Source: Candidatus Saccharimonadota bacterium (lineage in GTDB: Bacteria; Patescibacteriota; Microgenomatia; UBA1406; GWC2-37-13). Taken from it: a stretch of DNA of 32,000 bases. Under the pieces are notes generated by a model. It searched no databases and was not told the DNA's origin. It was given only the letters and a program-made list of their open reading frames with translations. Shown in pieces: positions 1 through 2,475 of this stretch; position 1 is the stretch's first letter; the number at the start of each line of letters is the position of its first letter. The position numbers and the translations under genes were made by a program. The stretch is taken from positions 330,001-362,000 of the forward strand of contig MGBH01000001.1 in NCBI GenBank assembly GCA_001790095.1, read 5' to 3'.

Positions 1-1436
1 CGGGCTTTTGCAGCACCTGATTGTAATATCATTTTTATTCTTTCGGGATTTGTTTTCAATTGGCTATATAATTCTCGTTCTTTTTTAAACTTTGTAAGTA
101 TTGCTTGAAAAAGTTTTTCTTTTACTTCTACATCTGCCACCGTTCCTTTTTCATATCTATTTTCAAGATCTTTAACTTCTTTTTTGTCATCGTTAAGCAA
201 GCGATGATAAGTGAATATTGGGTTACCGTCAACTCGTCCAGGATCTGTCGCTTTAATACGATTTGGGTCAGTAAAGCAACTCATGACTTGTTTACGAATT
301 ATTTTTTCCTCAGCAAAAACAGCGATGTAATTATTCAAACTTTTACTCATCTTGCGCTTGCCATCAGTACCAATCAAACGAGCACTTTCCTTCATATTAA
401 AGATGTCAGGAAGGTTAAATGTTTTCCCATATGTTTTGTTGAAAAATCCTCCAACATCTCTTGTGATTTCAATATGTTGTTTCTGATCGTCTCCAACAGG
501 CACATAGTCAGGGTCATACAAAAGAATGTCTGCGGCCATAAGGATGGGGTAACTGAAAAGTCCCATATTTATATCTTCCGGATTGGTTCCTTTTTGGAGT
601 TTGTCTTTATACGCGTGTGCACGCTTGATAAGAGAAAGTGGAGTAATATTGTTTAAAATACTTTGTAGTTCAGTGTGCTGGGGTATGTCAGATTGTCGAT
701 AAAAAACTACTTTGTTTGTATCAATCCCAAATGCTAAATAAGACAACACAAGATTTTCAACGTTTCGTTGCATTTCATCTCTTTTTTGTATGGTTGTGAG
801 AGCATGAAGATCAGCGATAAAAAAATACACCTTATCAGCTTGCTTTTGCAATTCCAAGAATGGAACTACGGCTCCTAGATAGTTACCTATGTGTACTTCC
901 CCGCTTCCTGATGGAGTAATGCCAGTTAAAATTGAGTAATGAGATTTAAGTATAGAATCAGAAGCTGATTTGATGAATCCAACATCCACTATGGTCGAAT
1001 TTGGCAGATTGATGAGATCTGATGTTTTATAGTTAATACTTGAAGTAAAGCTTCCTGAACCTGCCTGAACATATTTTTTTTCAAATATTTTTTTATCAAG
1101 AAATGTTTTTACGACTTGAGGTATATAAATACGCGCACTTCCAGGCTCAAGTCCTGTAAGAGAAGAAAACTCTTTATTGGTTGCCATAGTTAATAAAGTG
1201 GTTTTGGCAGCTTTTTTAAGTTTCTCCAAGTTTACTTTGCAATCATCTCTTCTAATAACAGCGATATATCCATAATCAACTTTAAAGATCAACGTTGAAG
1301 CTCCATTTTCAAAGGTAAGCTTGCAGTAATTGAGAACATCCTCAACTTCTTTAAAATATGGGTGTTCAACCACATAGTGATCGACATTCAGTTCCTTGAG
1401 CTTGTTTGAGTATTCTTTTACGTTTAGTTCTATCAT
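1..1436 (-). CDS. trpS: Tryptophanyl-tRNA synthetase with a ~165-aa N-terminal YbaK/ProX-like extension. The C-terminus runs off the window and the gene is absent from the supplied ORF track.
   Basis: Manual reverse-complement translation from the ATG at 1436..1434 stays open to position 1 (MIELNVKEYSNKLKELNVDHYVVEHPYF...). Class I signatures are TGITPSGSGEVHIGNYLGAV (HIGH-type) and GKRKMSKSL (KMSKS). GLFSYPILMAADILLYDPDYVPVGDDQKQHIEITRD is colinear with bacterial TrpRS. Confidence 0.9.
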   Translation of the reverse strand, partial: MIELNVKEYSNKLKELNVDHYVVEHPYFKEVEDVLNYCKLTFENGASTLIFKVDYGYIAVIRRDDCKVNLEKLKKAAKTTLLTMATNKEFSSLTGLEPGSARIYIPQVVKTFLDKKIFEKKYVQAGSGSFTSSINYKTSDLINLPNSTIVDVGFIKSASDSILKSHYSILTGITPSGSGEVHIGNYLGAVVPFLELQKQADKVYFFIADLHALTTIQKRDEMQRNVENLVLSYLAFGIDTNKVVFYRQSDIPQHTELQSILNNITPLSLIKRAHAYKDKLQKGTNPEDINMGLFSYPILMAADILLYDPDYVPVGDDQKQHIEITRDVGGFFNKTYGKTFNLPDIFNMKESARLIGTDGKRKMSKSLNNYIAVFAEEKIIRKQVMSCFTDPNRIKATDPGRVDGNPIFTYHRLLNDDKKEVKDLENRYEKGTVADVEVKEKLFQAILTKFKKERELYSQLKTNPERIKMILQSGAAKA

Positions 1437-1456
1437 ATAATTGATTATACAAAAAT

Positions 1457-2122
1457 TTATAAATCTTGTAATATGTCAGGTCGTGGAGGGCCCGCAAAAA
1501 TCATTGCGTCCCCCCTCGCATAATCGACATCAGTTATGGCACATGGTGCAAATGCTTCTATATCACCATATAAGCAGTTATGCCCATATCTGCCCCTATC
1601 CACATCACCTAATTGATTACCCGTGTTGATAAAAACACCAAGACGGACAGCATCATCAATATTTAAATCTGCCACCTTTAGACCCAATCTCTTCATTTTT
1701 TCAGACTGGGTATGAAAAGCGATAAAATCAGGGCGTGTTTCTTGTACCTCTTTTTTTAGGAGATGAAAGCCAAGTCCAGGAAAGCCGGGATCGCATATAA
1801 TACCTTCTACATGCAGGATTTTTTCATGTAAATCAGACCCTCGAATAGTTGTAGCTAAGAATCCCGTTGCACACTCATCCATCATCGCAACGGTTAAGCG
1901 TTGACAACCAAACACATGATCTGCTACGTCTTTTCGTAATCCCTCGGTAACTTCATTTCTTAAGAAACCAACTGCTGTTAATCTCGATAGTGATTCCAAC
2001 AGATCAGGGTGTTTATCTGCAAAATTAGTATCACCGTTTTGTTCATGAAAATATAAACGGTGCGTATTTGCAAAAAGGTCTTGTACGGGTCCGGAATGTC
2101 TGAAGCCTTCTCCTAAAAACAT
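1457..2122 (-). CDS. Hypothetical protein (221 aa) of unknown family, visibly GC-richer than its neighbours
   Basis: A long ORF in an AT-rich genome, where stop codons are frequent. It ends 20 nt before the trpS start on the same strand. Its composition is rich in G/R/D/H and poor in K/I, unlike the flanking genes. I recognise no family. There is a weak Cys..His..Asp pattern (VFGCQRLTVAMMDECATGFLATTIRG...LHVEGIICDPG). Confidence 0.55.
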   Translation of the reverse strand: MFLGEGFRHSGPVQDLFANTHRLYFHEQNGDTNFADKHPDLLESLSRLTAVGFLRNEVTEGLRKDVADHVFGCQRLTVAMMDECATGFLATTIRGSDLHEKILHVEGIICDPGFPGLGFHLLKKEVQETRPDFIAFHTQSEKMKRLGLKVADLNIDDAVRLGVFINTGNQLGDVDRGRYGHNCLYGDIEAFAPCAITDVDYARGDAMIFAGPPRPDILQDL

Positions 2123-2187: not shown

Positions 2188-2475
2188 TTAACCTCCCTTT
2201 TTGGAGGCACGCCAACCCATTTTCGTTATCGTACTAAATCTGCCTTTGGCAATCTCTTTTGATCCGCGGGTAACTGTTGCTACACCAATACCAAGTTTTT
2301 TTGCAATTTCATGTTGCGGAACACCTTTTTTAAGAAGTTTAATGATTTGCAGACGTACAGGAATTTCTTCAAGTTCTTGGGGAGTGAGGATGCCATACAA
2401 AAAATCTGCCATTTCTTTTTTGTTTTTTACGGCAAGGAGAATAGTAACTAATTCACTCTGATATTTTGAATTCAT
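2188..2475 (-). CDS. TrpR/YerC-YecD family helix-turn-helix regulator (95 aa)
   Basis: FLYGILTPQELEEIPVRLQIIKLLKKGVPQHEIAKKLGIGVATVTRGSKEIAKG is colinear with E. coli TrpR [56 protein letters not shown]. The recognition-helix ATxTRGS is conserved. Confidence 0.85.
   Translation of the reverse strand: MNSKYQSELVTILLAVKNKKEMADFLYGILTPQELEEIPVRLQIIKLLKKGVPQHEIAKKLGIGVATVTRGSKEIAKGRFSTITKMGWRASKKGG

Follow-up and report, generated by a model that had tools for sequence, protein, structure and literature searches.

Why should a tryptophanyl-tRNA synthetase (TrpRS) carry an appended domain of the YbaK/ProX/INS type? Textbooks present TrpRS as able to do without proofreading and INS/YbaK domains as companions of prolyl-tRNA synthetase (ProRS). 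The question is raised by a gene at the beginning of a 32,000-nucleotide stretch of DNA (the window) from a Candidatus Saccharimonadota bacterium (contig MGBH01000001.1, positions 330,001 to 362,000), in which an initial annotation, made from the letters alone, had seen a bacterial TrpRS with an N-terminal YbaK/ProX/INS-type domain. A hidden Markov model (HMM) match, the predicted fold, and recurrence of the arrangement in relatives all bear out this central claim. The gene encodes one polypeptide, in which about 11 flexible residues link a YbaK/INS-fold domain of 156 residues to a bacterial TrpRS of normal type. The case combines a known fold with an established idea, that of appending an editing domain, but the synthetase that carries it is unexpected, as is the composition of the active site, and the gene neighborhood is suggestive and new; the full-text literature searched, a scope that leaves most subscription journals outside, yielded no published account of TrpRS fused to YbaK.

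One polypeptide joins a YbaK/INS-fold domain to TrpRS

The minus-strand open reading frame (ORF) described earlier, starting from an ATG at 1436 and running off the window's edge, is present as 478 uninterrupted codons when window positions 3-1436 are translated, and an in-frame stop lies 14 codons upstream of that ATG on the minus strand. Every peptide string that the initial annotation had quoted occurs in the translation, and so does the extension of about 165 residues that it placed ahead of the TrpRS core, which starts ...YSILTGITPSGSGEVHIGNY at about residue 166. A word-index search found an identical full-length protein of 506 amino acids, P0271 (proteins and loci compared are cited by P and L numbers), on no fewer than 24 contigs of independent samples, including one contig of 1.2 Mb. 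Named members of this cluster are Candidatus Roizmanbacteria bacterium RIFOXY*_FULL_38_*, groundwater bacteria with tiny genomes. The parts of the gene are as follows.

1..1436, minus strand: fused gene ybaK-like::trpS, with 478 of 506 codons inside the window and the last 28 beyond its edge (ORF translation and the full-length identical P0271)
969..1436, minus strand: N-terminal YbaK/INS-fold domain, here called ND1, residues 1-156 (PF04073, AlphaFold2 [AF2], Foldseek)
1008-1364, minus strand: PF04073 match inside ND1, residues 25-143 (Pfam)
1296..1298, minus strand: codon of Ser47, where the INS superfamily has its canonical catalytic/anchoring Lys (HMMER alignments)
1281..1283, minus strand: codon of Lys52, conserved in the family, on the same strand of the fold and five residues past Ser47 (column counts)
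1131..1142, minus strand: loop G99-S-A-R102 in place of GXXXP, with no Pro at +4 (column counts and APE2540 alignment)
936..968, minus strand: interdomain linker, residues about 157-167, SASDSILKSHY (low model confidence; variable among homologues)
3..935, minus strand: TrpRS catalytic core with the anticodon-binding region, residues 168-478, truncated at the window edge (TIGR00233, 6ncr)
882-893, minus strand: HIGH motif (HIGN), residues 182-185 (read from the translation)
339-353, minus strand: KMSKS motif, residues 362-366 (read from the translation)

Searched against PF04073, the extension scored 51.4 bits (gathering cut-off, 25.5; E=1.4e-13) over profile positions 1-122 of 123. The AF2 model of residues 1-166, built with 121 homologues, has a mean predicted local distance difference test score (pLDDT) of 94.1 and the YbaK/ProX/INS fold. 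All 37 Foldseek matches in the PDB with E<=0.001 are chains of that fold, the probability being 1.00 and the template-modeling (TM) score 0.76-0.80 for 1wdv, 2z0k, 2cx5, 1vki, and 1dbx; by protein, TM is 0.80 for APE2540, 0.79 for Thermus thermophilus ProX, 0.78 for Haemophilus influenzae YbaK, and 0.63-0.70 for ProRS INS domains, at identities of 11-24%. The second-ranked match, 2z0k, is a ProX-AlaSA complex, and the 37 include two computational designs on an INS-type scaffold as well as the YbaK-like domains of SadB and Maqu_0641. By sequence, the closest match is the INS domain of ProRS 5znj (E=3e-7, or 3.8e-11 with a profile), and ProX-type proteins match also.

The domain has the PF04073 sequence and the YbaK/ProX alpha-beta fold of the INS/YbaK superfamily and lacks both of its catalytic motifs. 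An NCBIfam search of the fusion protein brought ND1 to no family cut-off: TIGR00011 (YbaK proper, the Cys-tRNA(Pro) deacylase) scored 21.7-24.8 bits (cut-off, 153.25), and the ProRS model, which matched the editing segment only, scored 28-32 bits (cut-off, 558). The sole synthetase core in the protein is a class I TrpRS, so that the domain is not an INS insert between class II motifs 2 and 3 of a ProRS. Pfam and NCBIfam gave no match in the fusion protein to D-aminoacyl-tRNA deacylase (DTD; PF02580/TIGR00256), and there is no tRNA_SAD/AlaX homology in the extension, PF04073 being the sole Pfam match in residues 1-171.

The remainder of the protein is a bacterial tryptophan--tRNA ligase with HIGN and KMSKS intact. 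It matches TIGR00233 (trpS) at 285 bits, against a cut-off of 176.75, and PF00579 over residues 166-449 (E=2.5e-63), and the core scores 251 bits against the TrpRS structure 6ncr. In the full-length AF2 model both domains are confident, while pLDDT drops below 50 at residues 157-160 and the predicted TM score (pTM) falls from 0.87 for the domain alone to 0.62, from which we take the domain to be flexibly tethered. The length and sequence of the linker differ among homologues.

Could the extension be an artifact of gene calling or assembly? The GenBank entries for the source genome (OGK63138.1, OGK64337.1, and others) list a 338-amino-acid TrpRS that begins at an ATT codon, Ile169, and leaves out the 168-codon YbaK-like part, and truly unfused relatives begin MKNNYSILTG; by this account the true TrpRS starts near the HIGH motif, and the upstream 168 codons are a separate gene or untranslated. 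We find this barely credible. No stop codon separates the YbaK-like domain from TrpRS, and the upstream part retains all family-invariant residues and folds with a pLDDT of 94. An internal Met near HIGH, which the initial annotation had itself named as evidence against a fusion, did not turn up: there is no Met at residues between 84 and 181, and the 338-residue model needs its ATT start. With no interdomain stop and no such Met, that model conceals a genuine fusion. Because the identical protein recurs on those independent contigs, and because dozens of diverged homologues have the same architecture with the reading frame retained, the fusion is not an assembly or frameshift artifact. Current GenBank annotation thus masks it in the source genome, the proteins being public under the name "tryptophan--tRNA ligase."

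ND1, a distinct family repeatedly fused to TrpRS

The domain is part of a distinct family, mostly free-standing, whose members became attached to TrpRS on many occasions in Microgenomates/Patescibacteria. More than 100 free-standing relatives, about 152-157 amino acids long, 35-50% identical, and labeled generically YbaK/EbsC, were recovered. The ProXp-7/8/9 clusters were reportedly defined in a 2020 review; ND1 is a name given here, and it implies no placement relative to the uncharacterized ProXp-8 and ProXp-9.

An exhaustive search of 50%-identity representatives, together with a word-index search, yielded 268 TrpRS relatives, whose architectures were mapped with local HMMs and, for ten of them, checked against Pfam. 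About 75 of the 268, from Microgenomates/Patescibacteria, bear one or two YbaK-like domains, N- or C-terminal. Named sources of the fused proteins are Microgenomates, Patescibacteria, and Roizmanbacteria. In the counts below, ND2 is a more divergent fused PF04073 type, B3/4 is the domain of the phenylalanyl-tRNA synthetase (PheRS) beta subunit (PF03483), and tRNA_bind is the Trbp111-type domain (PF01588).

Plain TrpRS: 174
ND1-TrpRS: 45
ND1-ND1-TrpRS: 12
Core match in two pieces, no architecture class of its own: 12
ND2-TrpRS: 8
ND1-ND1-TrpRS-tRNA_bind: 5
TrpRS-tRNA_bind: 4
B3/4-TrpRS: 2
TrpRS-ND1, C-terminal: 2
B3/4-ND2-TrpRS: 1
ND1-B3/4-TrpRS: 1
ND2-ND1-TrpRS: 1
ND1-TrpRS-tRNA_bind: 1

In the survey of relatives that the initial annotation had called for, fused TrpRSs, unfused TrpRSs, and free-standing domains were all recovered. 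A metagenome scan with ND1 motifs found 38 loci, 8 of them cut by contig ends; among the 30 that could be judged, domain and TrpRS share one ORF in 28, and the domain is free-standing in 2. This clade of tiny-genome bacteria repeatedly attaches to TrpRS not only YbaK-like domains but also PheRS-type B3/4 domains. The B3/4 and tRNA_bind modules, absent from the window protein, are fused to close relatives of its TrpRS, sometimes together with a YbaK-like domain. B3/4 precedes TrpRS in P0012, whose core is 73% identical to the window TrpRS, and in P0376; B3/4, tRNA_edit, and TrpRS are combined in P0016 and P0303; tRNA_bind follows TrpRS in P0018/19/22; and two tRNA_edit domains, TrpRS, and tRNA_bind make up P0310/311/316/319/338. 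Such multimodule relatives reach about 800 amino acids.

The domain and the synthetase do not appear to have traveled together. A neighbor-joining domain tree, midpoint rooted and without support values, puts fused copies in at least five places, four of them nested among free-standing proteins and one an all-fused clade. Domain identity between the window protein and the fused protein of L003 is 63%, against 32% for the core; with P0014/15/16, the domain reaches 27-31% and the core 54-57%. Judged by these identities, the histories of domain and core disagree. The core tree intersperses fused with unfused enzymes, and unfused sister cores are 81-88% identical to that of the window. L001 is genuinely unfused, with the trpB stop and a short spacer followed by "MSYNNTMKNNYSILTG," and the other unfused sisters start with the MKNNYSILTG given above. 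On this evidence, the domain is an add-on module that has been acquired, swapped, and dropped at the trpS 5' end, in a locus of conserved synteny. The suggestion that a free-standing deacylase was captured by fusion in a streamlined genome is likewise supported, by the more than 100 free relatives of about 152 amino acids and by the closely similar cores that lack the domain.

Simpler histories were considered and set aside. A recent, isolated acquisition producing a two-parent mosaic does not fit the finding of about 20 close fused relatives in the word-index search. Adaptation of the core to the domain left no trace, as 0 of 341 alignment columns separate fused from unfused cores. A free-standing ND1 directly upstream of trpS, as a prefusion state, was sought in L012, where no trpS start occurs in the 290 nucleotides (nt) after the gene. 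Separately, the homologue in L007 (P0002, 244 amino acids, on a 1.7-kb contig) is a fused protein that ends about 80 residues into the TrpRS core; TrpRS similarity resumes there in another frame (matches at 1325-1531 and 1501-1722), and the break is probably a frameshift or assembly error.

The case for a probable proofreading role

What might such a domain do on TrpRS? The reading we favor, held with moderate confidence and drawn from sequence and predicted structure, is that it would serve as a tethered module for posttransfer proofreading of aminoacyl-tRNA(Trp), with a noncanonical active site. After TrpRS charges tRNA(Trp), the flexible tether would let the domain's pocket, formed by the invariant G99 loop, the G126-S-G128 strand, D65, and D114, sample the 3' aminoacyl-CCA end. 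Noncognate esters would then be hydrolyzed by the substrate-assisted mechanism of INS-family enzymes, which involves the A76 2'-OH and water. Phosphate anchoring by the superfamily Lys, missing here, might be taken over by the TrpRS tether or by basic neighbors, namely, R62/R63 on the adjacent strand and K52. The likeliest substrates would be species that arise in a cell salvaging Trp. One candidate is D-Trp-tRNA(Trp), from the recurrent racemase and exporter neighbors described below; another would be tRNA(Trp) bearing Trp analogues made by a stand-alone TrpB from scavenged indoles.

We favor proofreading because the partnership with TrpRS is specific and repeated, because B3/4, an aromatic-editing domain of PheRS, was recruited in parallel, and because ND domains coexist with a separate tRNA-binding domain (PF01588) in the same polypeptides; that dedicated module speaks against ND as a mere aid to tRNA binding. 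Pocket residues are also strictly conserved in fused copies, with D65, E89, G99, G126, and G128 invariant in all 44 other fused ND1 domains and R63 and D114 each kept in 43 of 44. The identity and fold of the domain, its fusion to TrpRS in most metagenome loci, and the racemase, EamA, trpB, TrpR-like, and dtd genes found near it in other loci speak for this reading too.

The same partnership bears on another explanation, in which the domain is a general trans-editor of a substrate unrelated to TrpRS, such as Ala- or Cys-tRNA(Pro), fused for coexpression or stability in a streamlined genome. The top sequence matches, ProRS INS (5znj) and ProX-type proteins, point that way, as does the fact that most family members in the protein search are free-standing, one such copy adjoining an AlaX-like gene and a second tRNA_edit gene. 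All synthetase fusions found are nevertheless to TrpRS, repeatedly, at both termini, and from different domain lineages, a pattern that random capture would not give. No locus examined shows linkage to proS, and the catalytic Lys of all characterized Pro-related editors is missing, so we consider a general trans-editor improbable.

Several observations weigh against proofreading, beginning with the active site. In the INS superfamily, a strictly conserved Lys (Escherichia coli ProRS K279, H. influenzae YbaK K46, Caulobacter crescentus ProXp-ala K45) positions C75-A76 and acts with the GXXXP loop, and its mutation to Ala abolished deacylation in every member tested (PMC10164551, PMC11286415). 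The superfamily's K-T pair aligns with Ser47-Thr48 in every HMMER alignment that covers the site (5znj, 1wdv, 2cx5, 3op6, and 1vki). By sequence alignment, 121 ND1 members have P, S, A, or Q at the canonical site, and Lys occurs there neither among them nor in any fused group. The "K-containing strand" that the initial annotation listed among the YbaK/INS-family blocks is therefore not the catalytic-Lys block: the Lys of LIFKVD is Lys52, which is K in 113 of 121 ND1 members and 43 of 44 fused ND1 domains, and the canonical position is Ser47. The GXXXP loop is also absent from ND1, where the family reads G99-[A/T]-A-R-V-Y-x-P and the window protein G99-S-A-R-I; position 103 is V, I, A, or Y and never P, and in alignment the loop is one residue shorter than that of APE2540. 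Its other columns are well kept (G99 in 120, A101 in 117, and R102 in 108 of 121), and GXXXP itself is retained in ND2 and in the second tandem copy. R102, near-invariant in free-standing members, is relaxed in fused copies (H14/R13/S9).

Evolution and gene content add to these objections. In the closest clade, cores are 83-87% identical and domains only 40-66%, so the domain evolves faster. Being present or absent among near-identical cores, with no core column that discriminates the two states, it seems dispensable in some lineages. The window's own 32 kb contains no racemase, EamA, or dtd gene. DTD, whose fold is unrelated to that of ND1, is a possible functional analogue, since its known substrates include D-Trp-tRNA(Trp), which it clears (PMC1807948). 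A dtd gene (TIGR00256, 170 bits) lies upstream of a TrpR-trpB-trpS cluster both at L016:1961-2410, where TrpRS is unfused, and at L003:951-1388, where it is fused. Outright replacement of DTD by ND would fit L016, unfused with dtd, and several fused loci without it, but unfused L001 and L019 lack dtd and fused L003 has it; given the co-occurrence in L003, the domain is not a simple DTD replacement.

The altered active site invites a second explanation, in which deacylase chemistry has been lost and the domain is a noncatalytic module that binds or retains the acceptor end or CCA of tRNA(Trp). Like the tRNA-binding domains appended to other synthetases, it would raise tRNA affinity or channel Trp-tRNA(Trp). 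Besides the missing Lys and GXXXP loop and the relaxed R102, this account draws on the fast evolution and repeated absence of the domain, on its flexible tether, and on sister TrpRSs that bear a Trbp111-like tRNA_bind domain instead, as if extra tRNA-binding modules were favored. The YbaK fold also serves outside editing in SadB (9qzk) and Maqu_0641 (3mem), and the nearest parallel is found on Plasmodium TrpRS, whose AlaX-like domain is distantly homologous to an editing factor (PMC3240968). Set against this, the invariant G99, G126, G128, and D65 (with D114 in 43 of 44) are unlike a plain RNA-binding surface, two ND domains plus tRNA_bind in one protein would be redundant, the abundant free-standing 152-residue family has no synthetase to assist, and the racemase/exporter neighborhood is left unexplained. 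We regard a purely tRNA-handling role as possible but doubtful.

Known systems offer partial parallels to a proofreading domain on TrpRS. Like ND1, the INS/YbaK superfamily comprises free-standing and synthetase-attached forms of the same Pfam family and fold that keep a glycine-rich pocket strand, its nearest members being ProRS INS (5znj), APE2540 (1wdv), and ProXp-x (2cx5/2z0k); its synthetase partner is the class II ProRS, whereas that of ND1 is the class I TrpRS, and ND1 is without the Lys and GXXXP. Apart from INS, proteins of the superfamily have a single domain (2024 review, PMC11295145). Protozoan ProXp-ala::ProRS (Trypanosoma brucei, Plasmodium falciparum) likewise has an N-terminal INS-superfamily domain on a disordered linker, which there acts on that synthetase's tRNA, but the partner is ProRS, and the domain retains Lys and GXXXP and has been shown to deacylate Ala-tRNA(Pro) (PMC11286415). 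The cytosolic TrpRS of P. falciparum, likewise an enzyme not known to edit, also carries an N-terminal homologue of a free-standing trans-editing factor (PMC3240968); it is eukaryotic type, its domain is AlaX-like (tRNA_SAD fold), and it was described as unique to pathogenic alveolates, whereas the present case is bacterial, from the candidate phyla radiation (CPR), and YbaK-like.

Idle domains are unlikely to survive genome reduction, and the fusions therefore point to an unrecognized fidelity or tRNA-handling problem at tryptophan codons, possibly tied to D-tryptophan or indole salvage. The Lys-less ND1 is either a natural test of the INS mechanism or an editing fold turned to another use.

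Neighboring genes and possible substrates

Genes that adjoin ND1 elsewhere are the source of the candidate substrates. In the 38 scanned loci, a racemase of the TIGR00035 type (Asp/Glu family) lies 12-41 nt upstream on the same strand in 7, an EamA transporter lies 40-51 nt upstream in 10 (with a racemase just beyond in 2 of those), and trpB is upstream in 13; among the 11 loci whose upstream sequence extends 3.5 kb or more, 5 have a gene for a TrpR-like regulator there. The racemase family call is based on the examples in L012 and L026, beside free-standing ND1 genes, which score 150 and 124 bits against TIGR00035 (cut-off, 93.1) and are 38% identical to each other; racemases of the scanned loci were recognized by similarity to those two. 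Free-standing ND1 adjoins both a racemase and a TrpR-like gene, codirectionally in L012 and convergently in L026-28. Racemase genes adjoining a YbaK-like gene are found in L038, L042, L046, L048, L052, L057, L062, L064, and L065, and at L012:4280-4996 and L026:4471-5166, and one racemase subgroup has Ser for the first catalytic Cys (IGSNTVH, not ACNTxH). EamA genes occur in L030-L033, L035, L036, L038, L041-L043, and L007 and at L012:3382-4296; the protein's match to the aromatic amino-acid exporter YddG is weak, at 62 bits against a cut-off of 300. The racemase RacX is presumably a member of the same Asp/Glu family. A racemase of that name, with broad specificity, uses L-Trp efficiently, and the same paper names Bacillus subtilis RacX and E. 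coli YgeA as racemases of broad specificity and describes YgeA as independent of pyridoxal phosphate (PMC12838360). By guilt by association, D-Trp-tRNA(Trp) or tRNA(Trp) charged with Trp analogues would possibly fit this neighborhood.

The same linkage to racemase, exporter, and TrpR-like regulator could instead mark a small-molecule sensor, one that binds free D- or L-Trp or a related metabolite and modulates TrpRS rather than acting on tRNA. Loss of the tRNA-anchoring Lys alongside a conserved pocket would suit such a role, and YbaK-like domains occur in signaling proteins (Foldseek ranks 15 and 36). The PF04073 family proper provides no precedent, though, no core residues covary with domain presence, and interdomain confidence in the AF2 model is low, with no sign of an allosteric interface. 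A sensor strikes us as very improbable.

Returning to proofreading, a bolder version would make ND1 a new class of Lys-less YbaK-fold proofreader of D-Trp-tRNA(Trp) or of tRNA(Trp) charged with indole-derived analogues, operating within a CPR tryptophan/D-tryptophan island made up of the TrpR-like regulator, stand-alone TrpB, Asp/Glu-family racemase, EamA exporter, and editing TrpRS. Put together from gene order and conserved residues, this proposal seems to us unlikely as a whole; if it were true, TrpRS would be the first aromatic synthetase of class I to have its own cis-editing domain.

Around trpS, the locus order in the lineage is PBP1a, the TrpR-like regulator, trpB before or after trpS, and RarA. 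The trpB assignment is based on TIGR00263 (568 bits), and the gene is adjacent to trpS throughout the lineage (L013:5660-6850, just past the window edge, and L001, L016, L018, and L019). No other trp biosynthesis genes were seen in the loci examined, and trpB alone beside trpS suggests indole salvage. In L001 and L019, trpB is apparently split into two or three ORFs, in L001 partly from a run of N. Apart from the trp-related genes, the window is an ordinary PNPase/FtsK/dcw region. The features next to the fused gene are as follows.

1444..1472, minus strand: sigma-70-like -35/-10 pair, ATTACA, 17-nt spacer, TATAAT (consensus scan, 10/12 matches)
1457..2122, minus strand: ORF of 221 amino acids between the TrpR-like gene and fused trpS (no family)
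2188..2475, minus strand: TrpR-like (YerC/YecD-type) regulator (PF01371, 68.5 bits; TIGR01321 and TIGR02531 below cut-offs)

The sigma-70-like pair ends 7 nt ahead of the ATG at 1436 and is a possible promoter of a leaderless or near-leaderless transcript. A consensus scan across the region found sigma-70-like sites at a density not above the shuffled-sequence expectation, so we treat the pair as a lead only. The TrpR-like gene is syntenic with trpS in L001, L013, L016, L018, L019, L021, L029, and others. Two terminator-like hairpins, at 2144-2166 and 2191-2208 on the minus strand, surround its end, and it may therefore be a separate transcription unit; the stronger hairpin, with a 9-bp stem and a T-run, lies between it and the 221-residue ORF.

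That ORF is present in the identical source contigs L013-L015; the sister locus L021 lacks it and has the TrpR-like gene directly ahead of fused trpS. It matched nothing in Pfam above a curated cut-off or below E=0.05, and nothing in NCBIfam. A diverged racemase or AlaX-like protein was considered and rejected (best BLASTP E=0.006 over 38 residues; hhalign probability, 1.3%). Finally, at L005:5286-7586, the neighbors of a free-standing ND1 gene (P0008) in a small cluster encode a LysE exporter, an AlaX-like (tRNA_SAD) protein, and a second tRNA_edit protein, truncated to 104 amino acids.

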